From positions 1 to 39,157 of the forward strand of contig JAVJSW010000076.1 of NCBI GenBank assembly GCA_040219255.1: a stretch of 39,157 nt of DNA, read 5' to 3'. Position numbers and translations under genes: made by a program. The notes beneath the pieces are model-generated. The model was given only the letters and a program-made list of their open reading frames with translations, was not told the origin of the DNA and ran no database searches. This DNA is from Sumerlaeia bacterium. GTDB lineage: Bacteria > Sumerlaeota > Sumerlaeia > SLMS01 > JAHLLQ01. Shown here in pieces: positions 2,564 through 28,891 of this stretch (positions are counted from its first letter, which is position 1; every line of letters starts with the position of its first letter).

Positions 2564-3157
2564 ATGAAGTCCGTTCGCCACCTGCCCCTGTTCGCCGCCG
2601 CAGCGGCCGTTGGCCTCGCGCTCCCCGCGCTGGCCCAGCTCACCATTTCCGGTTCGACCTTTGAACCGAGCGGCGTGGCGTCGGGCGGTGGCCTGACCAT
2701 GTACGGCATCGTCGGCCAGCCGGACGCTCAGCAAGCGAGCGGCGGCGGCCTGACCCTGAACGGCGGTTTCTTGACGCCTGGCCTCGACACGCCGTTGCTG
2801 GTCGAACTGGCTAGGTTCGACGTGGTGCCGCAGGGCAACGGCGCCCAGCCGCTTCTGACTTGGGAGACGCTGGCGGAGATCGACAACGCCGGCTTTCACG
2901 TGTACCGCGCCGAGCCTCTGGGCGGCGGCTGGGTGCGGGGCGAGCGGCTGACGGCGGGACTCATTGCGGCGGAAGGCCTCTTCGGGTCCGGCGCCACCTA
3001 CACCTTCGCCGACCCCGAGGCCTACGCCTACGGCTCGGGCGAGCGCGCCTACTTCCTGGAGGACGTGGACCTGTCGGGCCGCGTCACGCTGCACGGCCCG
3101 GTGTTCCTGAACGAAGCGGGCGAGGCGGCGTCGGTGCGCGATTGGTCGCTGTTCTAG
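2564..3157 (+). CDS. Secreted protein: signal peptide, GQP/GGF Gly-rich module, Ig-like 'PLLVELARF...LTWET...DNAGF' domain, C-terminal DWSLF
   Basis: Signal peptide MKSVRHLPLFAAAAAVGLALPALA|Q. Module SGGGLTMYGIVGQPDA..SGGGLTLNGGF. Domain with WETLAEIDNAGFHVYR, YTFAD and YFLEDVDLSG, typical of extracellular proteins. ATG 2564 preferred over TTG 2543. Confidence 0.85.
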   Translation: MKSVRHLPLFAAAAAVGLALPALAQLTISGSTFEPSGVASGGGLTMYGIVGQPDAQQASGGGLTLNGGFLTPGLDTPLLVELARFDVVPQGNGAQPLLTWETLAEIDNAGFHVYRAEPLGGGWVRGERLTAGLIAAEGLFGSGATYTFADPEAYAYGSGERAYFLEDVDLSGRVTLHGPVFLNEAGEAASVRDWSLF

Positions 3158-3190
3158 GCAAATTCCCCGCGCGTCCGGGTGGTTGCACCC

Positions 3191-3619
3191 ATGAAGCCCC
3201 GAGTCCCACAGACCAAGCACTTCCCGCGGGCGACCAGCTTCGACGCCTCCCCCGCATCCTACCTTCCCCCCAGCATGCACATCGTCGCCGTCGATAATCA
3301 GACGACCGACGTGCTGACAGTGGACGTGCGGATTTCCGGCTTTGCCACGGTGCCGCCGGACTTCGCCTGGATCCCGCACACGGACCAACCCACATCGGCC
3401 GGCCTCAGCGTGCTCAGCCCCCATTTCATGACCGAACCCATTGAGATCACCACGGTGAGCGGCAGCTCGGCAACGACCGAGACCTGCGTGATGACGTTGA
3501 CCTTCGACCTCGAAGACGAATACGGCGATCCCTTCGGCAGCAACCTGAACACCGTCGAGATTCAGGCGCGCGACGATTCCGCCCACGATTTCGCCGCAGC
3601 CTTCTATATCGCCAAGTAG
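3191..3619 (+). CDS. Hypothetical beta-rich protein
   Basis: Open frame with strong G/C third-position bias between two plus-strand genes. Thr/Ser/Asp-rich, no signal peptide. Start uncertain (3179, 3191 or 3275). Confidence 0.6.
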   Translation: MKPRVPQTKHFPRATSFDASPASYLPPSMHIVAVDNQTTDVLTVDVRISGFATVPPDFAWIPHTDQPTSAGLSVLSPHFMTEPIEITTVSGSSATTETCVMTLTFDLEDEYGDPFGSNLNTVEIQARDDSAHDFAAAFYIAK

Positions 3620-3668
3620 AAGAACCGCAACCCTTTGACTCCTCCCAGGATAGGTCAGCCCCCCTCCG

Positions 3669-4694
3669 ATGCTCGCACCGCTCGCCCAACTATCCTCCGC
3701 CTTCCGCGTCCTCGCCGCCGGTGCCATTGTGCTGGCGATGGGGGCGGTGGGCTATGCCCAGGACGGCGGGGCGAAGCAGAAGCAGGAGGGGGAAGAGAAG
3801 GGAAACTCGCCGACGAGGATGTTCATTTATCTGTCGGATGTGAATGGGGTGTATGGGATGGAGGCGTTTCCAGACACGGCTCCTCCATTGCCGGGTCAAA
3901 AGGTGACGTTTTGGGTCTATGAAGGCGATGGCATCTATAGTGACCCGATCAATTATGCCACGGTTCGCGGGGTCGATTTCCTGGATTCTAGGGTGACTTT
4001 CAATACTCCGTTCTTCTTTGAGTTCTACTCGGATGTCACAGGTCCAATCGCCGGGTTATGGGCTGGAAATGTTGGATATTTAAACTCTCTCTCTTTTCCC
4101 TCTTGGACTATTCCTGTTGATGGTGAGGAGGTTGGTATGACTTTTGAGGGAATTAGTACAACAGGGGTCTACAAAGACAAGACTGTTCTGTTCAATATCG
4201 TACCTAGAATAGCAGATCGACTCTCTGAGCCGAGCATGACGGCAATTTATAGAGAAGTTCCTACTCATAGTGATCTGTCTATAGACATTGTAATTAAGTA
4301 TTTAGAGGGGAATGATCTTCATGGCTCTGAAGATACAGAGCTTCATACGCGATTGGGAGTAAATCAAGCGGGTGTGGCAATTGTATGGGGTCCGGAAAAC
4401 ATTCCGTCAGGATCATTTTACTTGGGTCATGAATTGCCGCTGGGGCCAGTTTCTTTATCAGTGGCGGTGGAGGATCATGGTGTTTTTGTCTACAAAAATA
4501 TAATATCAGTTAATAATTTGTATAACGTTAGTTACACTGCTTCTCCGGACTCTTCTCAGAATATGAAGCCTTCTGAGGTACCTCTTTTGGGCGAAGTCGC
4601 AATACCGCCAAAACCTTGGCCCGTCAGTCCAAATGCCAAGTTCTTCACGCCCTTAGCCTTCTACACAGACCTTCATGGGGTTCTAATCGAATGA
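3669..4694 (+). CDS. Hypothetical secreted protein with low-GC 3' two-thirds
   Basis: 341-aa ORF. Hydrophobic signal-like segment VLAAGAIVLAMGAVGYA|Q. Stop overlaps the next start (ATGA, 4691-4694). Confidence 0.75.
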   Translation: MLAPLAQLSSAFRVLAAGAIVLAMGAVGYAQDGGAKQKQEGEEKGNSPTRMFIYLSDVNGVYGMEAFPDTAPPLPGQKVTFWVYEGDGIYSDPINYATVRGVDFLDSRVTFNTPFFFEFYSDVTGPIAGLWAGNVGYLNSLSFPSWTIPVDGEEVGMTFEGISTTGVYKDKTVLFNIVPRIADRLSEPSMTAIYREVPTHSDLSIDIVIKYLEGNDLHGSEDTELHTRLGVNQAGVAIVWGPENIPSGSFYLGHELPLGPVSLSVAVEDHGVFVYKNIISVNNLYNVSYTASPDSSQNMKPSEVPLLGEVAIPPKPWPVSPNAKFFTPLAFYTDLHGVLIE

Positions 4695-5347
4695 AAACAA
4701 AAACAGTGAAACCCTTATTCTTCCTAACCCCACTCTTGGCAGCTCTGTCCATGACTGCCCAGAGCCAGGACGAACTGCTCCAAGAGACGCAGCGTCTTTC
4801 CGTGGGTCAGCTTTCCGGGCTGAATTTCGCGACGGATTGGGATGCCGTGTTGAGACTTCCGGCCAGCGGGGAGGAAGTATTGCCTTACAGCTATGTGCGG
4901 TCCACTTCTTCCGCCACAGACACGAGCCCCCAGATTTTTGCTCCCCTTAATACCATGGTGGTGTACGAAAATGATCCTGGCGAGCAACAACTCCAGTTTG
5001 GAGTAGGTCCTGTGTTGGTACCTGAGGTTTACGCCCACCGCTCCCTCGCGTGGGTGAAGTCGGCGTGGCTTTCCACGCTGGCGCACTTGGACAGCGACAA
5101 CAACGACTCGACGGGAACGCGGGCGGCGGCCGACCGGACGACGTACGATCCGGAGACTCCGATCCGGATTCTCGGCAGCCTGCAGCAGGCCCTCCTTCGC
5201 CGCGCCGGCGATGCCTACGACAACGTCGTGGGCACGGGCGGCGCGGGGTCCTTCGTGCCGCCGCAGAACACCACCGGCAGGTCCGCGAGCGCTTCGGTGA
5301 GCCCGGCGAAATCGAGTGTGGGCAGGGCGCGCCGGGCCTGGGTGTAG
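4691..5347 (+). CDS. Hypothetical secreted protein, possibly 3'-truncated
   Basis: Signal peptide MKTKTVKPLFFLTPLLAALSMTAQS|Q. ATGA translational coupling to the upstream gene. Last 133 bp overlap the convergent radical SAM gene. Confidence 0.6.
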   Translation: MKTKTVKPLFFLTPLLAALSMTAQSQDELLQETQRLSVGQLSGLNFATDWDAVLRLPASGEEVLPYSYVRSTSSATDTSPQIFAPLNTMVVYENDPGEQQLQFGVGPVLVPEVYAHRSLAWVKSAWLSTLAHLDSDNNDSTGTRAAADRTTYDPETPIRILGSLQQALLRRAGDAYDNVVGTGGAGSFVPPQNTTGRSASASVSPAKSSVGRARRAWV

Positions 5348-6018
5348 GAGCACCAGGCGGCGGTTTTGTCCCAGGCGATGGAGGCGAAGCGGGGGCTCTT
5401 GCCACAGGTGAGGAGGCAGCTCATGCTTTGAAAGCGGCCGCCGGGGGGTTGGCCGGCGACGCGGGCCATGTCGCGGGGGGTGGGGGTGTCGCGCACGCGC
5501 ATGGGCAAGTACACGATGCGGTCGTTGCCGATGCCGGATTGGCGCAGGCGGTCGGCGGCGGCTTCGGCGGCGGCGAGGTTGGCGCGGCTGGCGACGAGGT
5601 TCACGCCGCTGCGGATGCCGAGGCTTTGCAGGCGGTGGACCTGGGCGATGACGCGGGCGACTTCGTCGGGGCGTTCGGGAAAGTGGACGCTGACGTGGAC
5701 TTTTTCCGGCGCGGCTTCGGCGAGGCGATCCCACAGCGCGGGGTCGCGGTCGAGGGGCAGGCCGTTGGTGGTGAGGCTGCGGAACAGGCGGCCGCGCAGG
5801 GCGCCGAGGACGTCGAAGAGGGGCGGGTATTGGAGCGGTTCGCCGCCGCCGAGGGAGACGGCTTTGAGGCCGTGGGCGGCGCAGTCTTCGACGAAGGCGA
5901 CGAGTTCCTCCGGGGCCCAGACGGTTTCGCCGCCGGGGGCGCTGTGGTTGTAGCAGAACCAGCAGGCTTTGCCGCAGCGGTTGGTGACTTCGATGGAGAG
6001 AAGATGGGGGGCGGTCAT
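5215..6018 (-). CDS. Radical SAM protein
   Basis: CxxxCxxC (TNRCGKACWFCY), GGGEPL and TTNG motifs. Extra C-terminal Cys residues (SCLLTCG, WCSY, FCG). Confidence 0.92.
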   Translation of the reverse strand: MTAPHLLSIEVTNRCGKACWFCYNHSAPGGETVWAPEELVAFVEDCAAHGLKAVSLGGGEPLQYPPLFDVLGALRGRLFRSLTTNGLPLDRDPALWDRLAEAAPEKVHVSVHFPERPDEVARVIAQVHRLQSLGIRSGVNLVASRANLAAAEAAADRLRQSGIGNDRIVYLPMRVRDTPTPRDMARVAGQPPGGRFQSMSCLLTCGKSPRFASIAWDKTAAWCSYTQARRALPTLDFAGLTEALADLPVVFCGGTKDPAPPVPTTLS

Positions 6019-6210
6019 GGCGGGTGATGCTGGCGCGGAGGGTCGGGGCCTCGCGAGAGAAAGTTGAGGGTGAAGGGGGGCGTCCGGATGCCTGGGTGTG
6101 TCTTTCGATAGCGCCTTGGCATTGTGCGCGCTTTAGTTGGGAGCCGGGTTTGGCGTTCCCAACCCGAGATGCCGATTTTTCGGCACCATGCGATTGGCTG
6201 ACCCTGGACG

Positions 6211-7896
6211 ATGTACCTTCCGAAATGGCGGCGGATGAAGCGCCGCAAGGAACTCTTCAAGCTCTTGATCAAGCACGGCCGTGCGGAGTTGTCGGCGCGG
6301 TCGGGGTTGAACTCCATTCCCCCGGCGGACGACGCGGTTCCCAACCGGTCTCAGGAGGAGCACGCGCTGGAGGTGGCGCGGGACCTGGAGCAGCTCGGGC
6401 CGACGTTCATCAAGCTGGGGCAGTTGCTTTCGACCCGCGCGGATTTGCTGCCGCCGGCCTATTTGAAGGCGATGTCGCGGCTTCAGGACGATGTGGCGCC
6501 GTTTCCGTTCAGCCAGGTCAAGGGCATCATCGAGCGCGAGTTGCAGCAGGGTCTGCATGAAGCTTACAAGTCCTTCGACCCCGAGCCGATCGCGACGGCG
6601 TCGCTGGGTCAGGTGCACCGGGCGGTGCTGCACAGCGGCCGCGATGTGGTGGTGAAGGTGCAGCGGCCCAACATCCGCGAAGGCATTATCGACGATTTCG
6701 AGATCCTGACGGGCGCGGCGGAGTTGGTGGAGAAATACACCGACTTCGGCGAGCGCTATCGGCTGCGGAGCGTGATCCGGGAATTACGCGGGTCCGTTAT
6801 CAACGAACTGGATTACCAGCAGGAAGTGCATAACTTCAAGATTCTCAAGCGCAACCTGGCAGCCTTCGAGTATATCTTCGTGCCGGAAGCGATCGAGGCG
6901 CTCTGCACATCGAAGGTGCTGACGATGGATTTCGTGCCGGGCGTGAAGGTGACGGAGGCGACGCCGGAGGTTCTGGCGGCGATCGATGGGCCGCGGCTGG
7001 TGGAGGAGTTGTTCAACGCGTATTTGAAGGGTTTCCTGATCGATGGGTTTTTCCACGCCGATCCGCACCCGGGGAACATCATCCTGACGCCGGGGGGGCG
7101 GTTGGCGCTGATCGATTTGGGGATGGTGGGGTGGTTCACGCCGTCGTTCCGGTCGCTGCTGGTGAAGTTGCTGCTGGCGATCAGCGAAGGGCGCGGAGAC
7201 GACGCGGCGGAGGTCTGCATCCGGATGGGCGAACCGGGTCCGGAATTCCAGCGTTCGAGTTTCGTTCGGCGTGCGGGGCACCTGGTGACGCGGCACCGCG
7301 ACGCGAACGTGCGCGACATCGACGCGGGGCGGGTGGTGCTGGAGATCATGAAGATCGCCGGGGCGACGGACCTGATGCTGCCGGAGAGCCTGACGCTGAT
7401 GTCAAAGGCGCTCCTGAATCTGGACAAGGCGGGGCATTTCCTGGCGCCGCAGTTCAGCCCCAACGAAGCGATCCGGAAGCAATCGACGAAGATCCTGGAG
7501 AAGCGGGCGCTGAATTACGCGTCGGTGCCTCGCATGTTCGGCAACGCGCTGGAAACGATCGATTTCCTGGAAACGCTGCCGAACCGGGCGGACGTCATCC
7601 TGGAGCGGCTGGCCAAGAACGAGTTCCGGCTGGATGTGGACGCCATCGACGAGGCGCGACTGCTGCGGGGCATGCACAAAATCGCCAACCGAATCACGGC
7701 GGGGCTGGTGCTGGCGGCGCTGATCATCGGGGCGGCGCTGATCATGAACATCGAGTCCTCGGTCACGATCATGGGCTACCCGGCCTTCGCGCTGTTTCTG
7801 TTCACGGTGGCGGTGGCCTGGGGCCTGCTGCTGGTCCACCGGATTTTGTTCTCGGACGCGGCGGACGAGAAGAAGGCGCGCCGGAAGCGGTACTGA
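6211..7896 (+). CDS. UbiB/AarF (ABC1) family atypical protein kinase
   Basis: LGPTFIKLGQLLSTRADLLP, ATASLGQVHRA, VVVKVQRP, ELDY, FFHADPHPGN, LIDLGMVG, and two C-terminal TM helices. Confidence 0.95.
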   Translation: MYLPKWRRMKRRKELFKLLIKHGRAELSARSGLNSIPPADDAVPNRSQEEHALEVARDLEQLGPTFIKLGQLLSTRADLLPPAYLKAMSRLQDDVAPFPFSQVKGIIERELQQGLHEAYKSFDPEPIATASLGQVHRAVLHSGRDVVVKVQRPNIREGIIDDFEILTGAAELVEKYTDFGERYRLRSVIRELRGSVINELDYQQEVHNFKILKRNLAAFEYIFVPEAIEALCTSKVLTMDFVPGVKVTEATPEVLAAIDGPRLVEELFNAYLKGFLIDGFFHADPHPGNIILTPGGRLALIDLGMVGWFTPSFRSLLVKLLLAISEGRGDDAAEVCIRMGEPGPEFQRSSFVRRAGHLVTRHRDANVRDIDAGRVVLEIMKIAGATDLMLPESLTLMSKALLNLDKAGHFLAPQFSPNEAIRKQSTKILEKRALNYASVPRMFGNALETIDFLETLPNRADVILERLAKNEFRLDVDAIDEARLLRGMHKIANRITAGLVLAALIIGAALIMNIESSVTIMGYPAFALFLFTVAVAWGLLLVHRILFSDAADEKKARRKRY

Positions 7897-7904
7897 GGCC
7901 GAAG

Positions 7905-7944
7905 CGCCCCAGGCGAAGGAGGGGCGGTTTCCTTTTTCCCTTTT
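7905..7944 (+). terminator. Putative rho-independent terminator
   Basis: CGCCCC / GGGGCG stem (7905-7910 / 7921-7926) with a 10-nt loop, followed by GTTTCCTTTTTCCCTTTT, just after the kinase stop. Confidence 0.45.
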
Positions 7945-8012
7945 CACGCTCGCGGCCTTCGGGCTTGGTGAGGGCCGAGCCCCGATGCATCCCGACCCGA
8001 TAAGTTGGTTCC

Positions 8013-9224
8013 ATGAGCACTTTCGATCCGAACAATCCGCCCCAGCGCCCCGAAGACGAGGAGCCGGGACCTCGCGCGCCGGAGGGCGCCGAGCCCCAAC
8101 CGGCTTCCGAGGGACAGGAGAGTTTGACGTGGCAGCGGCCGGAGGATGGCTCGCCGGTGTACGGAGCCGATCCGGGGGCGGAGCCTCCGGCGGAGCGGGG
8201 CGCCCAGGAGTGGCGGCCGGAAGGGGCGCCGGAGCAGCAACCCATGGATTTCCAGGCACCCGCGGATTTCCAGGCGCCGCCTTATGGACCCCAAGCGGGA
8301 GCCGCCCCCGCCCCAAATTGGGGAGGTGAGTCGACGCCGGCTGAGATTTCCGCCGGGCCGCCGCCACCGCCGGTGCTCGGTCCGGCCATGCCGCCGGGCT
8401 ATCAGCCATCGGCCTACGACCCGCCCCAGGCTCAAGCGCCACCGCAAGAGCCGGCCTGGTGGGCGCCTCCGGCCGATTCGGCGCCCCGGGAAAATCTGGC
8501 GGAAACGCCTCCGACTCCGACCGATGTGCCTCAGCAACCGGCCGCCGGTCCGACGCCGCCGCCGAACTCTTCGCCGCCGCCGCCGGCTCCGGTGGCGCCC
8601 CCTCCGAACTTGCCCCCGGCCTATCGGCCACCCGCGCCCCCGCAGTATCAAGCGCCCCATGGACCTCCGCCCCCCGGCGGCCAATACGGAGGCTATGCGC
8701 CTCCCCAGCAAGGCGGTTATCCGCCGCCCGCGAGTTTTGGTGGCGACGCCCCCTATGGGCAGCAGCCACAGCCGCAGCCCCACCAGCAGCCCGGCCAGTA
8801 CGAAGGTTACGGGCAGCAGCCTCCGCAGCAGCAACCGGGGCCCTATGGCTACGATCCCTATGGCCAGCCGCCGGGCGGGCCTTATGGGCAGCCGCCTTAT
8901 TATCAGCCGGTGGATATCGGCCAACTGAACCAATCGAAGCACATGGCTTCGTTGGGGCTTACGATCGCGGCGGTGCTGGCGGTGTGCTGCTGCTGGCCGA
9001 TTTCGATGGGTTGCGGGGTCGGGGTGGTCGCTCTCTCTCGCAGTGCCCAGAACAAGGCCCGCGCGTACGGACAGGAAGACGGGCAAGCGAGCATTTGGCA
9101 GTGGGTCGGCTGGGCGATCATCGCCATTTCGTTGCTGATGTTCATCACCAATCTGGTCCTGACAATCTTGTATCCGGACATGATGGATCAGACCCTGCGC
9201 GATCTCGGTTTTCCGGTCGACTAG
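8013..9224 (+). CDS. Pro/Gln/Gly/Tyr-rich membrane protein with C-terminal two-TM (DUF4190/CD225-like) domain
   Basis: About 300 aa of low-complexity P/Q/Y/G sequence (PYGQQP-like units), then MASLGLTIAAVLAVCCCWP...AQNKARAYG...WVGWAIIAISLLMFI. Confidence 0.85.
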   Translation: MSTFDPNNPPQRPEDEEPGPRAPEGAEPQPASEGQESLTWQRPEDGSPVYGADPGAEPPAERGAQEWRPEGAPEQQPMDFQAPADFQAPPYGPQAGAAPAPNWGGESTPAEISAGPPPPPVLGPAMPPGYQPSAYDPPQAQAPPQEPAWWAPPADSAPRENLAETPPTPTDVPQQPAAGPTPPPNSSPPPPAPVAPPPNLPPAYRPPAPPQYQAPHGPPPPGGQYGGYAPPQQGGYPPPASFGGDAPYGQQPQPQPHQQPGQYEGYGQQPPQQQPGPYGYDPYGQPPGGPYGQPPYYQPVDIGQLNQSKHMASLGLTIAAVLAVCCCWPISMGCGVGVVALSRSAQNKARAYGQEDGQASIWQWVGWAIIAISLLMFITNLVLTILYPDMMDQTLRDLGFPVD

Positions 9225-9263
9225 GGCGGCGCCCAAGAACTTCCCAACGAAAGAACCGGCACC

Positions 9264-12161: not shown

Positions 12162-12188
12162 TGCCGGGCCGGAAGGCGAGGGCTGGAG

Positions 12189-13679
12189 TTACTTGATCGT
12201 CCAGCCCTCGAACTGCACCGTCAGGGTGTCGGTGATGAGGAAGTAGCCAGTCAGCTTCTGGCCCTGGCGCCCGTTTTCGTCCACGGGCACGACCTCGATG
12301 GTCCAGCGCTCGCCGACATCGAAGGTGGCGCCTTTCTCGCCGTTGCGGAGCATCGCGAGTCGATCCGTCGTCGGTTCGGAAGCGATGTAGCGGTCGTCGC
12401 CGTTGCTGCTCCAGACGTAAATGTAGCGGATGTCGCCGCCCTGGGAGGGGATGGCGTCCTCGGTCACCTCGACGGCGAGAACGATGCCGATTTCTCCGCC
12501 GGCCGGGGGCGGGACTGGGGTTGGGGTTGGCGTGGGGGTGGGGCCGATGTTGAGATAGTTGATGAGGAAGGTGAGGGTACCGGTATCGCGGGAAATGGCG
12601 ACCACGTCGGTGTCGAAGTCGTTGTCGATGTCAACGGCGAGGCGGGGTTCGCCGTCGTAGATGAGATTGGGAATGTCTTGCGAAATGAACGTCCCATCGC
12701 CGTTGCCTAGGAGCGCAAGATTTTGACTTATCCCTAGTCTTGTGAAAATGTCATCGTGGAAATCAAGGTTGAGGTCCAATGTTACGACCTCGCTTTCATA
12801 CCCCGAAGTATAGACAAAGTCCAGGGTGCTAAATCGATTCTCGACGATCTGATTGGCGATCCAGATACCATATGAATAAGCTGATCCACAGAGATCGGTC
12901 AGACCATCCTCATTCCAATCCCCGAAGTCAAAGTCATTGGCACCCCAATGGGTGGGATCGATAACTATCGGATCCTGAAAAGTTCCATCGCCAATCCCCT
13001 TGTAGAGCAACAAGTCGGACTCGGCCATATCGATCACAAGGTCCTTAATTGGATCGGTGTCCAAGTCGACGAATCCGCCGCTTTTAGCAGCGACCTGCAA
13101 CGCGATGGGCTCCAATTGCGAAAAACCGCCCTCTTCCAGACCCAAGTGAATATAAACTTCTTTGTCTCCGTTCGAGCCTCTCACAAAATCCAGAATACCA
13201 TCTGCATTGATGTCCTCTACATCAAACAGTAGATATCCTCCGTTGAATGCCAGATCAAGTTCAATTTCGAATGTTCCGTCTCCCTTGCCACGCAAAAGAG
13301 TCATCTGCACTGGCGAATCTTGGGAAACGAAGAGATCCCAATTTCCATCTCGATTGAAATCCTTAGCCACGATACGGTAGGCTTTGCCGGCCGTGCTGTA
13401 GCTGATCGGAGGCAAGAACATTCCGCCCCCCGCGCCGAGGATCACGTTGACTTGGCGTTGCTCGTTCGCCACCGCCAGATCCACGCGCCCATCCTTGTTG
13501 AAGTCCGCCGCGACAACATCGTGGGGATTGCCACCGACGGTGTAGGTCTGGACGTCGCCGAAGCCGGGCCATTGGGCGGCGGCGGCTGCTGCGGCGAGAA
13601 GAAAGGTGCCTGTGGCAAGAGCCCTTGTGCGATAATCGGACATGACCGGTGGGGCTTTCTTGGTGCGAACTGGAGACAT
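12189..13679 (-). CDS. Secreted FG-GAP/VCBS-repeat (beta-propeller) protein with Pro-Thr linker and C-terminal domain ending EGWTIK
   Basis: Signal FLLAAAAAAA|QW. Repeats ADFNKDGRVDLAV, KDFNRDGNWDL, EDINADGILDF, GDWNEDGLTDL, LGNGDGTF. PTPTPTPTPVPPP linker. GGGAGA RBS before ATG 13679 (alternative ATG 13643). Confidence 0.9.
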   Translation of the reverse strand: MSPVRTKKAPPVMSDYRTRALATGTFLLAAAAAAAQWPGFGDVQTYTVGGNPHDVVAADFNKDGRVDLAVANEQRQVNVILGAGGGMFLPPISYSTAGKAYRIVAKDFNRDGNWDLFVSQDSPVQMTLLRGKGDGTFEIELDLAFNGGYLLFDVEDINADGILDFVRGSNGDKEVYIHLGLEEGGFSQLEPIALQVAAKSGGFVDLDTDPIKDLVIDMAESDLLLYKGIGDGTFQDPIVIDPTHWGANDFDFGDWNEDGLTDLCGSAYSYGIWIANQIVENRFSTLDFVYTSGYESEVVTLDLNLDFHDDIFTRLGISQNLALLGNGDGTFISQDIPNLIYDGEPRLAVDIDNDFDTDVVAISRDTGTLTFLINYLNIGPTPTPTPTPVPPPAGGEIGIVLAVEVTEDAIPSQGGDIRYIYVWSSNGDDRYIASEPTTDRLAMLRNGEKGATFDVGERWTIEVVPVDENGRQGQKLTGYFLITDTLTVQFEGWTIK

Positions 13680-13692
13680 TATTCTCCCATCG

Positions 13693-14766
13693 TTACTGTT
13701 TTGCCAAGAGAAAGCGCCGCACCCACCCCCTGACCCGCGCGTCCAGCACCAGCGGCCCCCGCCATCCCCTCCGCGCCCTGTCCGGCAGGCGTTCGAGGAC
13801 GAAGCGGACGCCTTCGAGGAGGAGGGCTTCCCGCGCGATGCCGGGAAGGGCGCGGCTTAGGCCGAGGCGACGGGCCCAGGCGCGGTGCTCGGGCGGGAGG
13901 AAATCGCCCCAGGCGCGGACGGCCCAGGGGCCAGGGCGGAGGGCGGCGCGCAGGTCGGCGGGGCGGGCGCGGTTCAGGGTGGGAAACACCTCCGCGAGGA
14001 GGTGTTCGGCGCGGAGCGGTTCGCCCGGGCGCCATTCGATGGGATGGGCCGATCCGGCGCCGGCTTCGCGTTCGGCGGCGGTGGCCAATTCGTCCTCGCC
14101 CAGCAGCAAATGCCCCCACGGCACGGGAAAGATGTCGCGCAGGTGATGGCCAAAGGCGCTGTGGTAGAGGGGCTCTGTCGTGTGGAACATCAGGCCGCCG
14201 GGCCGCAGAACGCGTGCGGCTTCGCGGAATGCGGCGCGCAGGTCGGGGATGTGCTCGATGCAATTGACCGACCAGAGAAAGTCCACGGAGGCGTCGGGCA
14301 GGGGAATTTCGTGGGCGGAGAGGCGGACGAACCGCAGTGGCGCGCCGGACCGCACCCGCCAGCCGGTCAGGTCCTTGCCGTCGAACTCGAAATCGACGAC
14401 GCGCTCGGCGAGGGGCGGGTGGGCCGCCGCCATGCGGTGCAGCGTGTGGGCGTTGTCGGGGGTGAAGGGACCCTGGCCGGGGGGCCAGAGGACTTCGCTG
14501 GCGAGGACCTGGCCGGCGCGGGGATCGCTGGCGACGTGGGCGGCGACCCAGCCGCGCCCCGAGCCCCACTCGAGGGCGCGGTAGCCATCGGGCAGGGCGT
14601 CCAGGAGACGGGGGAACTCGTTGTGAAAGAGATCGGTGTGAAAGGTGCCGGCGTGCAGCGCGGCGAAGGCCTGGGCGGGGGCGGCGGCGGCCTCGGCGCG
14701 GCGCTGGGCGAGGAGTTCGCGCGCGATGGCGAGGGCGTCCTCGCGGATGGCGCGGCTTACCGCCAC
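13693..14766 (-). CDS. Class I SAM-dependent methyltransferase
   Basis: Motif I ALEWGSGRG, IPLPDASVDFLWS, IEHIPD, EAARVLRPGG. GTG start overlaps the upstream gene's end by 10 bp. Confidence 0.88.
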   Translation of the reverse strand: MAVSRAIREDALAIARELLAQRRAEAAAAPAQAFAALHAGTFHTDLFHNEFPRLLDALPDGYRALEWGSGRGWVAAHVASDPRAGQVLASEVLWPPGQGPFTPDNAHTLHRMAAAHPPLAERVVDFEFDGKDLTGWRVRSGAPLRFVRLSAHEIPLPDASVDFLWSVNCIEHIPDLRAAFREAARVLRPGGLMFHTTEPLYHSAFGHHLRDIFPVPWGHLLLGEDELATAAEREAGAGSAHPIEWRPGEPLRAEHLLAEVFPTLNRARPADLRAALRPGPWAVRAWGDFLPPEHRAWARRLGLSRALPGIAREALLLEGVRFVLERLPDRARRGWRGPLVLDARVRGWVRRFLLAKQ

Positions 14767-16769: not shown

Positions 16770-16978
16770 GGGCGGGATTGAAAACCTCTCGCTGGCAAGA
16801 TCATCGGATGAACAGGAAACGCGGTGGCCAGGAGGGGCGCAACGCTTACCCTCGAAAAGTGACCGTGGAAGGCTGTTTTCGCACTTTTGACCAGTTGTCT
16901 CTGACCGCCATTGCGGTTGACAGATGGCCTGCGAAAATGAATCTCTGACCCCACTACTGGTACAAGGACCTATTGCGA

Positions 16979-19900
16979 ATGACCCCGACATTGCCTCTCC
17001 GGCCTTGGCTTCGCGCCATGGCTACCCTGCTCCTTTGCGCCTTGCTCAGCACGCCAGCCTTGGCCCAAAGAACCGTTCTGATCGATTCGGAAAACGGCAC
17101 GGTGGATGGCAAATCGGGGGACTTCTTGGGGGTTCCGATGACGGTGGCCATCGATTCGGCGAACCGGACGACGACATTCTTCGTGAAGGGTGACCTCCGG
17201 TTATTCGAGGACACCACCTTCCGGGGCGCCGTCACTCGGGTGAACGCCACGACCTATCGGGGAAATTTCCTGACGCGGATTGTGATCGGCGGAAATTATT
17301 TCCCGACGGCGAACACGCGGTGGGATTACTCGGCAACGAGCAATTTCGGGACATTGGGTGTTCCCGGACCCGGTGGCGGCATCGCCCAGGAAGGCGGCAA
17401 CCGGGGCACGGGAGGCACCGGGGGTGCCGGCGGTGTCGGCGGGGCGGGCGGCGCCGGCGGCGCCGGTGGCGTCTTCGCCGGATCAGGTCCGGGCAATGGC
17501 TCCAGCGGAAGCTTCACATCCACGACTCCGAACGGGGAAGCGGGCGAACCGGGAAGTAACGGGGTTTTCTCCGCTCTGGCGAATGCCGCCAACGCGCCGA
17601 ACAGCGGGGGCGGGGGCGGAGTTGGCGGTGCCCAAGGCGCTGGTGGTCAGGGGCGGCAAACGGGGGGAACGGTCGGGGCCGGTGGCTCGATCTCGGGCAG
17701 CTTGGGCGGTAGCGGCGGTTCGGGTACGGCGGGTTCGTCGGGATTGAACGGGCTCGACGGCGGGAATGGTTTGTCCGGTACGGCGGGAATTCGAGGTGGG
17801 AACAATCCGAGCAATAACTTCACCCTTTCCGGCGGCGGCGGCGGCGGTGGCGGAGGCGGCGGCGGTGGTGGTGGCGGCAGCGGCGCCTCGGGCGGCAATG
17901 GCGGTGGCGGCGGCGCAGGCGGCGGCGCGTGCTGTTTCAGCGACGGTGGCTCCGGCGGTAAAGGTGGCACGGGGAACACCGGTTCGGCCGGCGGCAGCGG
18001 TGGCCCCGGCGGCCCCGGCGGCCGCGGCGGTCATGGCGGCGGAGGACTGGAGATCGTCGTCCTTGGGTCCGCTCAGTTCACGGGAACGTTCGAAGCCCGT
18101 GGCGGAGATTCGGGTTCGGGCGGCATCGGAACTTCTGGGTTCTTCGCCCCCGAGGTGATTCAGACAACCCCCACGGGAGCGGGAGGCGGCAATGGTGGCG
18201 CGGCAGGCGATGGCGGTTCCGGCGGCAGTGGCGGCCGGGCCGGTGTCATCGGCGGCGACGGCGGGTCCGGCGCCTCCGGAGGGCGCGGTGGCGGCGGAGC
18301 GGGTGGTACCATCAAGCTTTCCGCCTCGATGCCCTTCTGGATTTCCCCGAGCATCATCACCACAGCGGGCGCCGGTGGAATCAGCCAGGTGAGCAACCTG
18401 GACAAGGGCCGCTTCATCTTCGCCAGCAACGCCGCGACCATTCCGAGCTTCGGCACCGTGGACGCCCGCCAGTTCAACGCGGGCCAAGGCCCCACTCGAG
18501 CCAACCCCTTTGTCAACGGCAGCCCGCAGACACCCACTCTTCCCTTCCTGAGCTATACAAACCCCGATGGCACCCTGGGCACCGATGGCTACGGCGAGGC
18601 CTTCGGCCTGGATACGACGTCGCCGATTACCTTCAAAGCCGGCGAAAAGGGCGAGGGCGATACAACGCCGGCTCTTCTCAAACCTTTCGGCCCAGAACGC
18701 GAAGGCCAGATCCTCGGCCTTATCGTCCTGAGCGACGCGCAAGTCGAAGACATCTATCCAGCGGCCTTCCCCGGTTTCCGCCTCGTCATTTTCGTCAACC
18801 TCAGCGGCGAACCACTGCGCGATCCCGTTCTGGTCCTTGGCCGGACCACCTCGCCGGTGGGCTTGCTCGAAGGCGGCTGGAAGCATCGCATTGAGTTCGG
18901 TGGCGGCGGCGATTCGCCGATTGGCGATTTTCCCGCCGATTCGGCTTTCCTCACCCTGATTCCGAACACGACGCCGCTCAATGGCGCCTTCGGCTATTCC
19001 GGCGATTTCGGCCCCATCGTTCAGCCGGTCGCGACCCTTGCGATCGACACGCCGGTTTTCCTCGGCGGGCCTGCGGCGCTGTCCTCCCAGGCCCTCACGA
19101 TGGGCCCCATCACCGGCGATGGCGATCAGCAGGCGTCCTTCCGCGTCATGTTCGACGACATGGTCACGCAGGTCGATCCCAGCGATTTCCAGGCGCAAAA
19201 CTGTGACCTCAACGGTGAGAATTGCAGCGCGTTCCCCGGTGTCTCGGTCGACAACGTGCAGCCACGCCAGCGGCTCGCCTTCCCCGGCGACCGCCATTTC
19301 AACGTCACAAGAACGCTGAATCTTCCAAGCGGCAACGCTTCCGATCTGACCTTCGAGTTCTGGGCCTATCGCACCAGCACGGCCAACTCGATGATCTTCA
19401 GCGCCGAAAGCAGCACCGGCGATTTCATCGATATCTTCTGGGATAACAGCATCCTGCGCGTCGAAATGGATGTCGAAGCGGTCGATGGCGGCTTCGCGAC
19501 CGTAAACCTGCCGACGACGGGCATGAGCGAAGTCAACAAGTGGGTTCATTTCCTCATTCAGTTCGATGTCTCCGCCCGCCAAATCCGCACCTTCAAGAAC
19601 GGCGCTGAGCAAGCCAGCACCAACCTGCCCGGCTTCGTCGGCAATTTCCGCATCGTCGATATCGGCGGTTTCAATGGAGCCCGGCGCTTCAACGGAGTGC
19701 TCGATGAAATGCGCTGGTGGCGCGGCGTTCGCGCGCCCCAGGAAGACCGCTTCCGCGAGATCGGGGGAGACGAAACCGATCTCTTTCTCTACCATCGCTT
19801 CGATCAGGAAGGCAGCACCCTCACCGATCTTGGCCCGAACAACTACGATCTCAACGCGTCCGGCGGGGCGTTCGCGTTCTCGTCCGACAATCGCCTCTAC

Positions 19901-22900
19901 ACTGTCGATATGACGATCAGCGGCGGCACGGATGGCAATCTGGCCGCTGGCTTCGACCCGTTCCTGAATAACATCCAGAATAGCGAAGGCCTCGCGATGA
20001 CCGCGAAGGCGCTCGAGGGCTTCGAAGAATTCAGCGATGTGATCTCTGTGGATCGGCCGCTCAGCGCCACCTTCGCCGGCGGTATCCTGACGGTGACGAC
20101 GGACATCGCTCTGGATATCGCCATCACGGTGGTCGGCAACCGCGTCAAAGTGAACGGCGGCGACCCGAGCACCGGCGAACTCCTGCCCAACCAGGTCGTC
20201 GGCATCGACGTCACCGGGTTCCAGAGCGGCTCCGGCGCCGCGACGATCGACCTCTCCGATGTGACTCCGGCCGAGTTCACGGCCCTCGCCCCGATCACGG
20301 GACGGCCCTTCGCCGTCAACATCACCGGCGGTCCGGGCAATGAAACGCTGATCGGCTCCGGCGTGGTGGACAACATTCAGGGCGCGGGCGGTAACGACAC
20401 GCTCGACGGCGGCCCCGGCGGCGATACGCTGGCGGGCGGTTCGGGCGAGACCACGTTCCGCTTCGCCAACGGCTGGGGGTCTGATTCTCTCAGCATCGAC
20501 AGCGGCACGTCCCGTCTCGACTTCGCCCCGGTGGGCAACGCGGCCAACCTGACCGCCAATATCGGCACGGGGGCGGTGACGTCCAGCAACGCGGGCGACA
20601 GCGTCAACTTCGCCTCGCTCAATGTGCAGTCCATCACCGGCGGCACCGGCGCCAATCAACTGATCCGCCCGAGCATCGCCAACACGTGGGGGATCACGGG
20701 CCAGAACGCGGGCACGATCAATGGGCTGGCCTTCGCCAATTTCGCCAACATCACAGGCGGCACCTCGACCGATGCGTTCCGGTTCTCGCAGGGCGGTTCC
20801 ATCACGGGAATCGTCAATGGCGGCGGCGGTGTGAACACCCTCGATTACAGCGGCACGAACGGCCCGGTGGTTGTGGACTTGAGTTCGGACAGCGCGAGCT
20901 TGACCGGCAGCGTGCTAAACATGACGAACGTCACGGGCTCGCCCGCGGGCGATACGCTGACCGGCAACGCGGGCGGCAATACGCTGTTGGGTCTGGGCGG
21001 TGACGACACACTCAATGGTCTCTCGGGCAACGATACTCTCAACGGCGGTGCCGACAACGACACCTATGTGTTTGCAGATGGGTGGGACAGCGAGACGATC
21101 CAGGATTCCGGCGGCAGCGATACGTTCGACTTCTCGCAGAGCACGATCTCGCTCACGGTCAATCTTGGAGTCAGCCCCATCTCTCTTGCCTCTCACTCGG
21201 TCCAATATACGCCTTCGGACATCGAGAACCTGATCGGTTCATCTCAGAGCGATTCGTTTCTCATGCCGGTGTCTTCGTTGTCTAATCTGAACCTCAATGG
21301 CGCGGGTGGTTCGGACACTTTGAACTATTCGTTATACAACACTCCCGTGGCGGTGAATCTTGCCGATGGAACGGCGACGAACCTCGGGAGTGTGACGGGA
21401 ATCGAGGACGTTTCCGGTGGCTCGGCAGACGATATTCTGACGGGCAATGACGCGGTGAATACTTTCCGCGGCAATGGAGGCAACGATCAGATGTCGGGCG
21501 GAGCCATGGTCGATGTGTACCTCTACTTTGGCGATTTCGGCATCGACACGATCATCGATGCGGCGGGCGACTACACCGTCAACCTGATCGGAGCATCCCA
21601 GCCCGTCACGGTAACCGTCGGCCCGACCTTTACCGCAACAATGCCGGGGAACCATTCGATCACAAACTCGGCGGGGTCGCCGGCCTCTGTCATCGGCAGC
21701 CCACAGAGCGATATCTTCACGATCAATTCGACCAACATCGCGGCGGTCACCCTCGATGGCCTCGGCGGCGATGATAGCTTTACTGTCAGTCTCGACGGGG
21801 TGCAGCAAACCCTCAACATCAACGATACCGGCGGAGGCGCGAACTCGCTCGTCGCCAACGCCACCAGCGGCGACGACAACCTCAGCGTCACCGTCACCGG
21901 CGTGGTCCTCAACATGACCAACACCGTCAACGTGGACGAAAACATCGGCGACATCACGGTCAACGGCCTCGCCGGCAACGACACCTTCGACCCCGTGGCC
22001 GGTTCACCCAACGCGACGATCCTGGTCGATGGCGGCACGCAGACGCTGCTCGACTCGATGAAGTACAGCTCGCAGGCCGGCGGTCTCGATCCGGTCATCA
22101 CCGAGATCACCGCCACCAGCGGCACCATCGACGAGCCCGACACGGACCGCCTCCGCGTGACCTATCGGGACATCGAATCCCTCGGCGAGGACAGCGCCCT
22201 GACGGAATTGCAAGTCGGCAACGTCTTGGTCAAGGCGGACTCGATCCTGCCGAACGGCGCCACGACCTTCGTGGCCCAGGGCACCATCAACTTCAACGAC
22301 ACACTGCGCACCACACAGGCGGTGCTCCTGGACGCCAACCCTTTGGCGCCTTCGATCAGCGGCGACCGGGCGTTGACCTTCCCCGGCATCACGGCGGACG
22401 CGGATGTGGATTCGGATGTCCTCTTCGCGGGCGGTTTCAGCATCGACGCGCGAGCCGCCGGTTTACCCGGTGGCGCCCGCATCACACCCAAGAACGGCCT
22501 CAACCCCGGCGCGCCTCTCGTGCTCTCCGGCGTCGGCATCGAACCGCGTTCGGTCGAATTGGTGGGAACCGATGTCCGAATCGACGGACGCTTCGGAGCT
22601 CCGAGCCTCTCGGACGTTCCGTTTCGCGACCTGATCCTCTCCAATGCCAATGGCGCCGACTTCAAAGAAGCGGTCTTTGAAATCGCCGACGGCATTGAGT
22701 TCGACGTGCCGGATTCGATCTCGGATATCTTCGACGATACCGGAATCAACTTCCGCGATATGGTGTCGAGCAACTTCCCCAGCAGCGTTTCCAATTCCTT
22801 CAAGTTCGACAAATTCGAAATCCGCAGCAACGGCGAAGTGGAAATCGAAGGCTCCATCTCGGGCGGCGGCGCGGTTCTCGAATTCTCCAATCCGTCCTTC

Positions 22901-25900
22901 AGCGACTCGGCGCTGACCGTCGGCTCCGCGAAGATCACCGGCCTGCCCGGAAGCGCCACCTTCGACGCGCAAGGTTTCACGGTGAATTCAACTTCGGCGA
23001 CTCTCGATACCGCCAAGTTGACGATCAACGGTCTGATTTTCGACATTACCGGCGGCGACTTCTCTTCCAGCGGCATCAGCTTCGCCACCGGCGACCTCAG
23101 CTTGCCGGGGCGCTCGCTCAAGGTCAGCCTTGTCAATATCATGGCCAGTTCCGCTGGCCTGAGCTTCGACTCCGGCGAGTTCATCTCCGGGGCTGTGAAG
23201 TTCCTTCTCGAAAACCTCAACCTCGATCTCGACGCCGGGACCTTCTCCATCGCCCGGGCTTCGGCCAACGTTCCCAACACAGACGAGTTCTCGCTCGAAG
23301 GTCTCCGCGTCGGCAGCGACGGCCAGTTCGCCGTCACCGGCGGCAGCGTCAAAGCCGCGGGCTTGCTCGTCGCCGCCTCCGGTGTGGACATCCTCGACAA
23401 CGGCGTGACCATCGGCAGCGGCGCCGTCAGCAAAGACCCCGCCGCCGGGTCCAATTCGTTCCCCAACGGCGTCTCCGTCACCTTCACAAACCTCTCGGTG
23501 CGCGACACGGGCCTGACCATCGGTTCGGGCGACGTGATGGCCAACAGCGTGAAGATCAATCTGCAAGACGGCTCCTTCACGGACCAGGGTGTCTCGATCG
23601 GCGAAGGCAACGCCGAAGTCCCCGGCGTGGAAGAGTTCTTCATTGCCGATTTCGCCATCGGTTCCGACGGCAGCTTCGCCCTGGGCGCGGCGACCTTTGC
23701 CAGCGGCGGCGTCCGCGGCAGCTACGCGAACGGTCAAATCCTGAGCAACGGCATCAGCATCGGTGAGGCCTCCCTCACCGGTCTGCCCGCCAACTCCAGC
23801 ATCGCCGTGGAAAACCTCCTCGCCACCAACACCGGCCTCTCCATCGGCCAGGGCGACGTCACCTTTGGCGGTGTGGCCTTCAGCCTGACGCAGGGCCTCT
23901 TCGGCCAGAACCCGAACCCCGACCTGGGCAACGGCGTGTCCTTCGCCTCTGGTTCGTTCACGGCCGGCGGCAGCATGCTGACACTGACCAACTTCGCGTT
24001 CAGCACCGGCCTCGGTCAGGTGCAGTTCGAACGGGCGGAAGGCAACTTCCCAGGCGTGGACGAGTTCATCCTGACCGGCCTGCTGATCAACACGCGCGGC
24101 CAGTTCAAGCTGTCCGGCGGTTCGCTGATGACCAGCACCGGCCTCGGCGCCTCGTTCTTCGACGGCGACGTTCTGAGCAACGGCATCAAGATCGGCCGCG
24201 CGTCGGTCAATGGCCTGCCCAGCGCCAGCAGCTTCTCCATCCAGAACTTGCTGGCGACCTCTTCCGGCGTCTCCATCGGTTCCGGCGACGTCAAGGTTTC
24301 GAGTCTGTCGGTTTCCCTGCGGTCGGGCAATTTCTCGGCGGAGGGCGTCGAAATCGGTAGCGGTTCGGTGGCGCTTGGTTCGCGCTCCATGAACGTGACG
24401 GAAGTGAAAGCGACCGATTCCCAATTCATGATGGGGTCCGCCAACCTGGCCATCGCCGGTTCCATGGCGAGCCTCACCGGCCTGGAAATCCTGACCAATC
24501 CGACCCGCATCGCGGTGGATGACGTGGCGCTCTCGGTGCGCAACACGGCGGGCTTCTCGCTCGAAGGGTTCAGCATCGATGGCAACGGTAAGGTCGGCGC
24601 CACCGGCGGCTCATTTATGGCGGGTCCGCTCTCGGTCTCCTTCAAGGGCGGGGATTTCTCGGGCAACGTGATCAAGATCGGCGAGGCGGAACTGACCGTC
24701 AGCGGCGACGGCGTGATGCTCACCGGCCTGGAGGTTTCCAGCACCGGGGTGATCGTCAAGTCCTCGCGCCTTAGCGCCTTCGGCCTCGTCTTCGTGCTTA
24801 ACGACGGCGCCTTCGGCAGCGACGGCTTCTCGGTGGGCAGCGCTTCGCTGAACATCCGTGGCGCGGCGGGCATGAACGTCCGCGACCTCGTTGTGAATGA
24901 CCGCTCGGTTTCCATCGGCGGCGGCGGATTCATGATGGCCGGGCTGGAAGTGGACTTCCGCACCGGCCAACCGGCCGACGGCGGCGATGGCCTCGCCATC
25001 GGAGCCACCGTCAACCTGCCCGAGTTCTTCGGCAACGGCGGGGCGGACTTCAACGTCGTCGCCCGCGATTCGGGGCTCGAAGTCGTCGATGCAATGATTT
25101 GCCTGCCGGACATTCCGCCTCGCTCGATGAAGCGTTCGCCCATCGGATTCAGCGACGTCTGCTTCACCTATCAATCGGTGCCGAACGAAATCTTCGGCGG
25201 CGGCGGCACGCTGGCCATTCCGGCGGTCGTGACCATTACCGCGAGCATCGAAATCTTCGACGGCCAGCTCAACAAACTGAGCATCACCGGCGAGGACCTC
25301 AAGGTCGCCATCGACTCCACCGGCGCGTTCCTTATCAAGGTTGGCGTTTCGGCGGAGAACCTCGCCCGGTTCCCGGGTGCCAAGCCGATGCTGTTCAAGG
25401 GCACGCTGGGGATTTCCGCCGGGCCTTCGATTCGTCTCGGCGGCACGTCCTTCTCGCTGCTGCGTCTCGACCTCAGCGGCGAGTTCGATCAATCCGGCTA
25501 CGTCAGCGTTCGCGGCGACCTGATCCTGATCAAGTTCGACATGTTCTCGGCGTTCCTGACGATCATTCCGTCGGGCCCGAACGCCGGCGTCAGCGTCGGC
25601 GCGCGCCTCAACGCCCTCTTCGTCCTCGTGGCCGAGGGCGGTCTGTCCATCGACCTCAACGCCAACGTCAGCGGCTTTGTCCGCGGCGCCATCGTCATCC
25701 CCGAGGACATCCCGGTCTTCGGCGGCTTCGAACTGGCCAGCGTCCGCGCCGACTTCGGCAATACCTTCGTCTCCGGCGAGGCCTGTTTCATCGGCATCTG
25801 CGGCGGCTTCATCTTCGACTCGGATGGCTTCCGCATCAAAGAAAACGACACGCGGCGCTTTGCTGAATGGGAAATTCCCTACGACCGCGCCGTCACCCTC

Positions 25901-28891: not shown

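Follow-up and report, generated by a model that had tools for sequence, protein, structure and literature searches.

C-terminal sorting signals of the tripartite kind have been described together with dedicated enzymes, LPXTG with sortase, PEP-CTERM with exosortase, GlyGly-CTERM with rhombosortase, PGF-CTERM with archaeosortase and MYXO-CTERM with myxosortase (bioRxiv 10.1101/2023.06.07.544157; PMC11980579). In Bacteroidota's type IX secretion system (T9SS), PorU removes the sorting domain and the cargo is linked to anionic lipopolysaccharide (PMC4560394, PMC5121618, PMC5562754, PMC7468200). Here we describe a short tryptophan-containing tail at the C-termini of exported proteins in a window of 39,157 nucleotides from a Sumerlaeia bacterium, the window being the whole of contig JAVJSW010000076.1 (C76) in an 83-contig, 5.35-Mb assembly (GCA_040219255.1, hereafter G000; 92% complete, G+C 63.6%). 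Judged by sequence, the tail is a real C-terminal motif, specific in position and restricted in lineage, on exported proteins whose domains are unrelated, and the tails in the window are the local sign of a phylum-level feature that is patchy within Sumerlaeota. No publication describing it was found in the openly accessible literature, and the available text of a Sumerlaeota genomics paper mentions signal peptides for chitinases only (PMC8092238).

A preliminary description of the window had drawn attention to the ends of four proteins, and translation reproduces each of them: ...ASVRDWSLF for the gene at 2564..3157 (plus strand; alternative TTG start at 2543), ...VQFEGWTIK for 12189..13679 (minus strand), ...EGVTGWMAN for 16973..28891 (plus strand; the ATG chosen in that description lies at 16979) and ...DLHGVLIE, with Val for Trp, for 3669..4694 (plus strand), each followed by a stop codon. 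All four proteins are signal-peptide-like by reading, with a basic N-terminus, a hydrophobic core and an Ala-rich cleavage region. Trp at position −4 is confined to secreted proteins of the window, as had been stated: it occurs in 3 of the 20 called genes, all of them with a signal peptide, and in none of the other 17.

Terminal Trp is enriched far beyond chance in the genome as a whole. Genes were called with our own crude codon-usage log-odds caller, trained on long open reading frames (ORFs) with high GC3 (3912 genes, 85.5% coding), and N-termini were classed as signal-peptide-like by a rule that looks for a basic residue, an uncharged hydrophobic 9-mer and a small-x-small site at each start codon near the 5′ end; the rule is crude and over-calls, giving 1200 signal-peptide-like proteins without further transmembrane helices. 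Trp stands at −4 in 60 of these 1200 and in 36 of the 2712 other proteins (Fisher one-sided p = 7e-11), and at −5 in 48 and 40, respectively; at the remaining positions from −1 to −12 its frequency in the signal-peptide-like set is 1.1–2.1%. The genome-wide bias foreseen in the preliminary description, [DG]W at −5/−4, is found in 27 signal-peptide-like and 10 other proteins (p = 1.3e-7), with 9.9 expected across the whole proteome from the internal dipeptide frequency. A regular expression for the motif gave 42 matches at true protein ends, 0–8 at artificially shifted ends and 20 in 40,962 uncalled ORFs.

Reading of the 183 tails with Trp at −4 or −5 led to a refined position-specific scoring matrix (PSSM), with a score of at least 6 defining class A; when 41,932 internal Trp positions were treated as protein ends, 0.07% reached this score. 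Class A holds 57 proteins and reads approximately P/T/A-[AS]-[SN]-V-x-[DNG]-W-x-[LMVI]-[YF] plus 0–2 residues, the aromatic residue being followed by nothing in 28 tails, by one residue (mostly E, D or Q) in 26 and by two in 3, so that Trp lies at −4, −5 and −6, respectively. A second form, class B, is [G..]-W-x-h-[KRNH]-stop (G-W-h-h-[KRNH]) and is found in a further 18 proteins, where 1.75 would be expected; of these, 17 are signal-peptide-like. The motif as originally drawn, [DG]W at −5/−4, thus captured a real position-specific tail, but its register floats and −5 also admits Asn and other residues; likewise, the three Trp-bearing window proteins are all tagged, but two of them, the FG-GAP and giant proteins described below, carry the second form and do not share one motif with the third. 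Together the two classes comprise 75 proteins, about 2% of the G000 proteome, whose genes are spread over 36 contigs with no recurrent neighbour. Sixty-two of the 75 fall in the class of signal-peptide-like proteins without further transmembrane helices (1200 of 3912 overall; p = 7e-21) and 67 have a signal-peptide-like N-terminus of any sort; a stricter rule applied at the called start retains 27 of 75 against 429 of 3912 (p = 7e-9), and several of the tagged proteins lacking a signal peptide proved on reading to have miscalled starts. The median tagged protein is long, at 608 residues versus 326 for all proteins.

On comparative evidence the tail is a tag in its own right rather than a single domain's terminus, because it stands behind 60 unrelated contexts, follows Pro/Thr linkers and stays conserved after a linker that drifts. 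BLAST (E ≤ 1e-3) divides the 140-residue stretches upstream of the 75 tags into 60 groups without similarity to one another, the biggest with 7 members, and some tails come directly after pure Pro/Thr linkers, as in ...TPTATPDVQPSAWSVY and ...PTPTPGPDGPAGWMAR. Pfam assigns FG-GAP, SdrD_B, lamin-tail (LTD), Endonuclease I, alpha-amylase, Calx-beta, Golvesin_C or SMP-30-like domains, or none, to 20 further tagged or related proteins; by these assignments the repertoire is that of surface or extracellular proteins, of adhesin or hydrolase type.

The largest group shares a domain of about 105 residues and includes the 197-residue window protein (2564..3157), which consists of a signal peptide, a Gly-rich stretch, an FN3-like beta-sandwich, a variable linker of about 12 residues and the class A tag S-V-R-D-W-S-L-F (3131..3154, plus strand; PSSM score 16.4). 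Counted from MKSV..., this protein equals database protein P0005; P0006, its nearest orthologue in the database at 51% identity, has SVQDWHLF in place of the terminal SVRDWSLF of the window protein. Across 26 aligned family members from 19 genomes, conservation of the domain runs as far as an invariant G-P, after which come a linker of 10–15 residues without a conserved column and the tail V-x-x-W-x-h-[FY](x), kept in 22 of the 26; since four members manage without it, the FN3-like domain does not need the tail. AlphaFold2 modelled the last 135 residues with a mean predicted local distance difference test score (pLDDT) of 86.7 and about 95 over the beta-sandwich. The idea of a terminal beta-strand read by an outer-membrane machine found no support; in this model a short edge strand is formed only by the A-S-V-R ahead of Trp (pLDDT about 81), and confidence is low (about 58) over the terminal D-W-S-L-F. 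A Foldseek search of the FN3-like domain against the PDB returned generic FN3/Ig folds only (best E = 0.016).

We compared the tail with described sorting systems. It is absent from the curated sorting-signal libraries of Pfam and NCBIfam: neither matched the C-terminal regions of the four window proteins, and Pfam, the only library run on them, matched none in the 20 further tagged or related proteins. The preliminary view that the tail lies outside the known CTERM and T9SS families is borne out to that extent. Its exclusion of LPXTG, PEP-CTERM and GlyGly-CTERM also stands, as all 75 tails stop 3–5 residues past the Trp and contain neither a hydrophobic stretch nor a basic cluster. Like the tripartite signals, the tail places a short motif at the extreme C-terminus of unrelated exported proteins, is lineage-restricted, occurs in dozens of proteins per genome and is accompanied by one co-distributed candidate enzyme; unlike them, MYXO-CTERM included, it has no helix and basic cluster after the motif. 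Exosortase (PF09721) has no match in G000 and is absent from 46 of 48 genomes of the families rich in the tag (defined below); sortase and rhombosortase were not searched for. Exosortase matches occur only in all 7 genomes of family f11, which is poor in the tag, and in 2 of 13 genomes of f15, and exosortase/PEP-CTERM was on this distribution rejected as the reader of the tail. The f11 genomes G013, G015, G016 and G017 combine exosortase with just 3–5 small PEP-CTERM proteins each (200–350 residues), and in G015 and G057 a PEP-CTERM match adjoins the exosortase match. The genuine PEP-CTERM tails of f11 look quite unlike the Trp tail, and 17 clear f11 PEP-CTERM ORFs had no BLAST match (E ≤ 1e-5) in the G000 gene set, so that the same proteins have not swapped anchors there.

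The T9SS resembles the Sumerlaeota system in placing a C-terminal signal on Sec-exported surface proteins, and differs from it in the signal itself, 8–11 residues in Sumerlaeota versus an Ig-like domain of 70–100 residues. None of the 24 proteins scanned has the 70–100-residue Ig-like C-terminal domain that defines PF18962/TIGR04183; PF18962 gave one marginal match in G000 (29 bits, within an 852-residue ORF) and any match in only 3 of the 75 Sumerlaeota genomes surveyed. PorV (NF033710) had no match in G000, at 92% completeness, the only match among controls being a sub-threshold one in B. thetaiotaomicron; SprA (TIGR04189) likewise had none in G000, and none in 14 control genomes, so that this search was uninformative. 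With type A domains in 3 of 75 genomes and no PorV match, T9SS was set aside as the reader, the SprA search adding nothing. The beta-signal of outer-membrane proteins is a C-terminal aromatic strand read by BamA, and it shares with the tail a hydrophobic, aromatic C-terminus on envelope proteins of diderms. The carriers of the tail differ in being soluble multidomain proteins (FG-GAP, cadherin-like, LTD, nuclease and others), and 29 of the 57 class A tails have one or two residues, many acidic, past the aromatic residue. The barrels of G000 itself include BamA, the second Omp85 and the TonB-dependent receptor, and their endings, ...FHFRLRGGF (BamA), ...LHFGFQFGL and ...FSVGLSASF, are ordinary beta-signals unlike the tag.

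The distribution of the tail was examined in 75 genomes of the phylum with the DNA pattern V-x-[D/N/G/E/S/K/R]-W-x-(NTN codon)-[Y/F]-stop and its reversal as a control. The tag is abundant in eight Sumerlaeota families and at background in seven: families f1–f4 (the window's order) and f12–f15 have 630 matches against 56 controls in 48 genomes, single genomes reaching 50 versus 0 and 53 versus 0, and families f5–f8, f10, f11 and f16 have 32 against 29 in 24 genomes. We refer to these as tag-rich and tag-poor families. The sole f9 genome (G008) has 0 matches versus 1 control; of the two genomes outside the class, G001 (680 contigs) has 18 versus 2 and the other 4 versus 2. In the two richest genomes, 31 tails from 30 loci follow unrelated sequences, with a preceding [STA]-[SGAN] preference beyond what the pattern demands. 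The suggestion of Sumerlaeota as a group with such endings is correct by the source names of the homologues, 'Sumerlaeia bacterium', 'Candidatus Sumerlaeia bacterium', 'Candidatus Sumerlaeaceae bacterium' and 'uncultured Candidatus Sumerlaeota bacterium'. A stricter DNA pattern, [AS]-S-V-[ED]-D-W-x-L-Y-stop, searched in one genome each of 185,579 species, gave 6 matches, of which 2 end long ORFs, both in Sumerlaeota records, and 4 are chance; the pattern is too narrow to judge use of the tag in other phyla. Samples of 400 kb from G066 and G069 yielded 1 and 0 tagged proteins, with too few exported proteins to be informative.

The context of the FN3-like domain outside the window bears on function. 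A profile of this domain located it in 35 longer database proteins, in which what follows it varies by lineage. In 3 Sumerlaeia proteins, as in G000's own, it is followed by a linker and the Trp tail, one G000 paralogue having no tail; in 4 of the 35 by a hydrophobic helix and basic cluster (for example ...LLALAGARVWRKRR); in 4 by a T9SS type A domain (about 95–104 residues, PF18962 on record; KSB1 and Edwardsbacteria among the names), so that the same pre-anchor domain precedes T9SS sorting domains in other phyla; in 7 by 700–880 residues holding a C25 peptidase domain; and in 6 by short tails of the type ...Y-L-P-L-I-x-R, the rest ending otherwise. The Trp tail of Sumerlaeota holds the slot of other lineages' sorting signals, which fits a sorting or anchoring role. 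The same module thus precedes different C-terminal sorting signals in different lineages; on this, and on the enrichment, unrelated contexts, conservation and lineage pattern set out above, we lean, by a modest step, toward reading the tail as a short C-terminal sorting or attachment tag of exported Sumerlaeota proteins, a sortase-like form included. After Sec export, the free tail would be read in the envelope and the protein would be sent to, or fixed on, the cell surface.

Two further endings were seen behind the FN3-like domain. Proteins P0016, P0026, P0028, P0043, P0015 and P0042, from outside Sumerlaeota (one from Caldilineae), have endings such as ...VYLPLIQR, ...LYMPLIVR, ...VYLPVVIKQAK and ...LYLPLIGAGATR, and such YLPLI-type tails may be another unnamed short C-terminal tag. 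P0039, from a Thioploca sp., ends in two copies of D-D-W-L-x-I-P-H, whose V-D-D-W-L start resembles the Sumerlaeota tag.

The other tagged proteins of the window carry the class B form. The 496-residue exported FG-GAP repeat protein (12189..13679, minus strand) combines a Pro/Thr linker with a C-terminal domain of some 100 residues and the tag Q-F-E-G-W-T-I-K (12192..12215). Relatives of that domain in three other genomes end FDGWMTR, FEGWTFD and FSGWMFQ, and by this comparison the G-W-h-h-x end is conserved among them; other FG-GAP proteins of a sister genome end PIGWMAK and IDGWMAK. The giant exported protein (3972 residues; 16973..28891, plus strand) has a Gly-rich N-terminal region, RTX/serralysin-like Ca-binding repeats, cadherin-like domains and the tag V-T-G-W-M-A-N (28868..28888), and a partial relative in G036 ends ...ASVDDWRILQAE. 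Its first 450 or so residues (16973–18400, plus strand) are mostly Gly-rich and of low complexity, with GGxG runs and one run of 13 Gly, and the RTX/serralysin-like repeats follow at about residues 1100–1550. A PIN-domain gene (PF13470; 28876–29301, plus strand) begins 16 bases ahead of the giant gene's stop codon. Pfam finds FG-GAP repeats in the 496-residue protein, cadherin-like domains in the giant and nothing in the 197- and 341-residue proteins; NCBIfam finds only sub-threshold RTX/serralysin-type repeats in the giant, and no sorting-signal model in any of the four.

The 341-residue exported protein (3669..4694, plus strand), which has no Pfam or NCBIfam match, ends H-G-V-L-I-E, plausibly a decayed copy of the tag, because two of its three paralogues in G000 end EGWMAR and NGWFTR opposite HGVLIE; the third ends ...NAWVMNGKEK. 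The proposal that this ending is the same pattern with Val for Trp thus gains support from the paralogues. A search of the order's 24 other genomes found nothing for this protein at E ≤ 1e-8, and the ORF may be a recent or fast-evolving paralogue. It sits in the lowest-GC stretch of the window (4001–6000; 58.6% versus about 64%) and was overlooked by the codon-usage caller.

A peptidase gene co-distributed with the tail, of the kind that the preliminary description had thought worth looking for, is present. G000 encodes four C25-family proteins, and the Peptidase_C25 family as a whole was rejected as a candidate because it occurs in 73 of 75 genomes; only a long subtype discriminates. Full-length relatives of the 1822-residue C25 protein occur only in tag-rich families, and other families give paralogue-level matches only (E between 1e-34 and 1e-60; G000's own 1460-residue paralogue gives 2.6e-37). 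A profile of its last 330 residues, a region absent from the paralogue, matches 44 of the 47 genomes from tag-rich families and none of the 24 from tag-poor ones. The three misses are G049, G058 and G060, of which G049 and G060 have N-terminal fragments of the gene at contig ends and G058 is 66% complete. The adjoining gene encodes a 360-residue protein with an N-terminal membrane anchor and tetratricopeptide (TPR) repeats, full-length relatives of which (E ≤ 1e-39) show the same split between tag-rich and tag-poor families and are in most genomes neighbours of the long C25 gene; the matches from tag-poor families are generic TPR ones only.

The long C25 protein has a signal peptide, a C25 domain at residues 591–952, a CARDB domain and no tag of its own. 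Like the T9SS enzyme, it is a C25 peptidase whose nearest solved relative is PorU (6za2_A, E = 4.3e-19), the 1460-residue paralogue reaching only gingipain R. Its GHGGP and CD motifs align with those of 6za2_A, the catalytic His and Cys being retained, and GHGGPN and SCD are unchanged in 9 of 9 orthologues, which represent six families. Unlike PorU, the protein is about 700 residues longer and falls below the PorU cut-off.

As with PorU, the gene is linked to surface-glycan functions: on the minus strand of G000 the long C25 gene heads a string with the TPR protein, a 657-residue polytopic protein, an NAD-dependent sugar epimerase/dehydratase and then four more genes, whose products are a polytopic member of the O-antigen-ligase family (Wzy_C) carrying C-terminal TPRs, a NamZ-like protein, a lipoprotein and a PLD-like protein. 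Two genomes of the window's family and one of f4 show synteny for this string; in f13, f14 and one f15 genome only the C25–TPR pair is adjacent. A complex prediction of the TPR protein (residues 45–360) with the final 36 residues from the window protein family gave a score of 0.00, which is no answer and speaks neither for nor against binding.

Several other candidate readers were set aside. The second Omp85 beside a TonB-dependent receptor on contig C33 has close orthologues in only 4 other genomes and so does not share the tag's distribution; the order at G000:C33:550-16250 is tagged protein, TPR, SusC-like TonB-dependent receptor (the genome's only one), second Omp85/POTRA, DUF3450, long ExbB, ExbB, ExbD, TonB, TPR and Sel1. 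Secretins number 8 in G000, but 2–4 in tag-rich f15 against 7–13 in tag-poor families. The G000 secretin-domain genes lie on C16, C11, C35, C49, C44, C1, C31 and C75, one of them in a 1314-residue open frame, and counts across the phylum range from 2 to 14, lowest in f15, the family richest in the tag. Legumain C13 is absent from G000.

From this co-distribution and the likeness to PorU, we give a little less than an even chance to the proposal that the reader is a two-gene module, a secreted PorU-like C25 peptidase of about 1820 residues with a membrane-anchored periplasmic TPR protein. In a sortase-like version the tail would be clipped and the cargo joined to a surface glycoconjugate, with neither a T9SS translocon nor a folded sorting domain. 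The most specific form of the proposal, which we hold only tentatively and regard as somewhat unlikely, is a T9SS-independent system in which an 8–11-residue Trp...Tyr/Phe tail would replace the T9SS domain, and a giant PorU-related C25 transpeptidase, steered by a membrane-anchored TPR protein gripping the free C-terminus, would cut off the tail and attach up to hundreds of exported proteins per cell to the glycoconjugate.

A number of observations weigh against a sorting tag read by this module. G008 (f9) has the long C25 C-terminal domain and no tag signal, G041 carries the long C25 gene with 1 match to the tag pattern against 1 control, and G001, for all its 18 tag matches versus 2 controls in 680 contigs, has no match to the long C25 or TPR profile; neither of the two genomes outside the class matches the long-C25 profile, and one of them has tags. 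On the side of the module stands a BamA tree (barrel region, 21 genomes, maximum likelihood, root placed for display only), in which the tag label changes 3 times, at least 2 of the changes being forced by well-supported branches, and tag-poor f7 is sister to tag-rich f15 (SH-aLRT 98). Because the tree needs several label changes, the co-distribution is not a single split; all the same, it rests on 2–3 independent events among 75 related genomes, and it was compared for chosen candidate genes, so that other genes may share the pattern. TM657, the 657-residue polytopic neighbour, comes from a large family of paralogues, and its distribution does not follow that of the tag. The top NCBIfam model of the long C25 protein is the T9SS sortase PorU (NF033707), covered over profile positions 356–750 of 1095, at 189.4 bits; as this is far under the cut-off of 420, the protein is not a PorU equivalog. 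With that score, and with the C25 family in 73 of 75 genomes, the long C25 may be an ordinary secreted protease that was lost when its substrates were. Two further C25 peptidases of G000, each of about 930 residues (G000:C46:44886-47657 and G000:C37:70578-73412), carry the catalytic domain right at the C-terminal end, with ...SHWMVLGE and ...PDWDSWE after it. With these tag-like tails the two paralogues look like cargo; the observation suits the role of cargo no less than that of machine. Members of the FG-GAP family have the G-W tail joined to their last domain without a linker, and it could be part of that domain's last strand or fold. Finally, the gene and signal-peptide calls are crude in-house heuristics.

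The best surviving alternative to a processed sorting tag is a non-covalent docking peptide, in which the uncleaved tail would plug into a receptor such as a TPR groove, a lectin-like surface protein or a scaffold, as PTS1 binds PEX5 and dockerin binds cohesin. The short, exposed motif with its low-confidence end and the co-distribution of the TPR protein accord with this, and a register floating by 0–2 residues suits groove binding of W-x-h-[YF] better than strict recognition of the carboxylate. The TPR gene, however, is always paired with a peptidase whose catalytic dyad is intact, relatives have cleaved sorting signals at the same position, and no receptor was found; we consider docking unlikely, though it deserves some weight.

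Far less probable is a quality-control or processing signal, by which a periplasmic PDZ protease of the Prc/CtpA or DegP/DegS type would trim or destroy lingering exported proteins. PDZ proteases recognise nonpolar or aromatic C-termini, and the tag is indeed confined to exported proteins. But 29 of the 57 class A tails have extra terminal residues, mostly E, D or Q, which would break recognition of the last residue by a PDZ domain, and lineage-wide loss together with one C25–TPR module is not expected for housekeeping PDZ proteases.

We give slightly less credence still to a structural end-cap with no trafficking role, in which the Trp strand would complete or protect the last domain and a few successful C-terminal modules would have been shuffled. 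The abutting G-W tail of the FG-GAP family and the pairing, in the AlphaFold model, of the pre-Trp residues with the edge of the FN3-like sandwich would suit an end-cap, but it is hard to square with the 60 unrelated upstream contexts, with tags behind Pro/Thr linkers, and with a tail that is conserved while its linker varies and that 4 of 26 family members do without. A type I (ABC) secretion signal, an extreme C-terminal acidic and hydrophobic motif such as the acidic residue plus hydrophobic residues of Erwinia and Serratia metalloproteases, is very improbable: D-W-x-L-Y resembles D followed by hydrophobics and the giant window protein has RTX/serralysin-like repeats, but type I substrates have no Sec signal, 67 of the 75 tagged proteins are signal-peptide-like (the three window proteins clearly so), and most have no RTX repeats.

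Pairs of C-terminal signals and dedicated enzymes, such as those of sortase, exosortase, rhombosortase and PorU, set bacterial surface display, and with every pair newly described dozens of proteins in a genome have been accounted for. The tag described here marks about 2% of the proteome in a globally distributed, uncultured phylum and lies outside both the tripartite-helix and the folded-T9SS architectures; as an annotation rule, a Sumerlaeota protein ending in the tag is predicted to be exported. If the C25–TPR module is the reader, PorU-type attachment chemistry would be older and more modular than the T9SS, and the module would offer a very short tag and its enzyme as a pair testable in vitro. 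A T9SS-independent tail with a C25 transpeptidase would, if true, add both a new class of sorting signal for bacterial proteins and the enzyme that goes with it.

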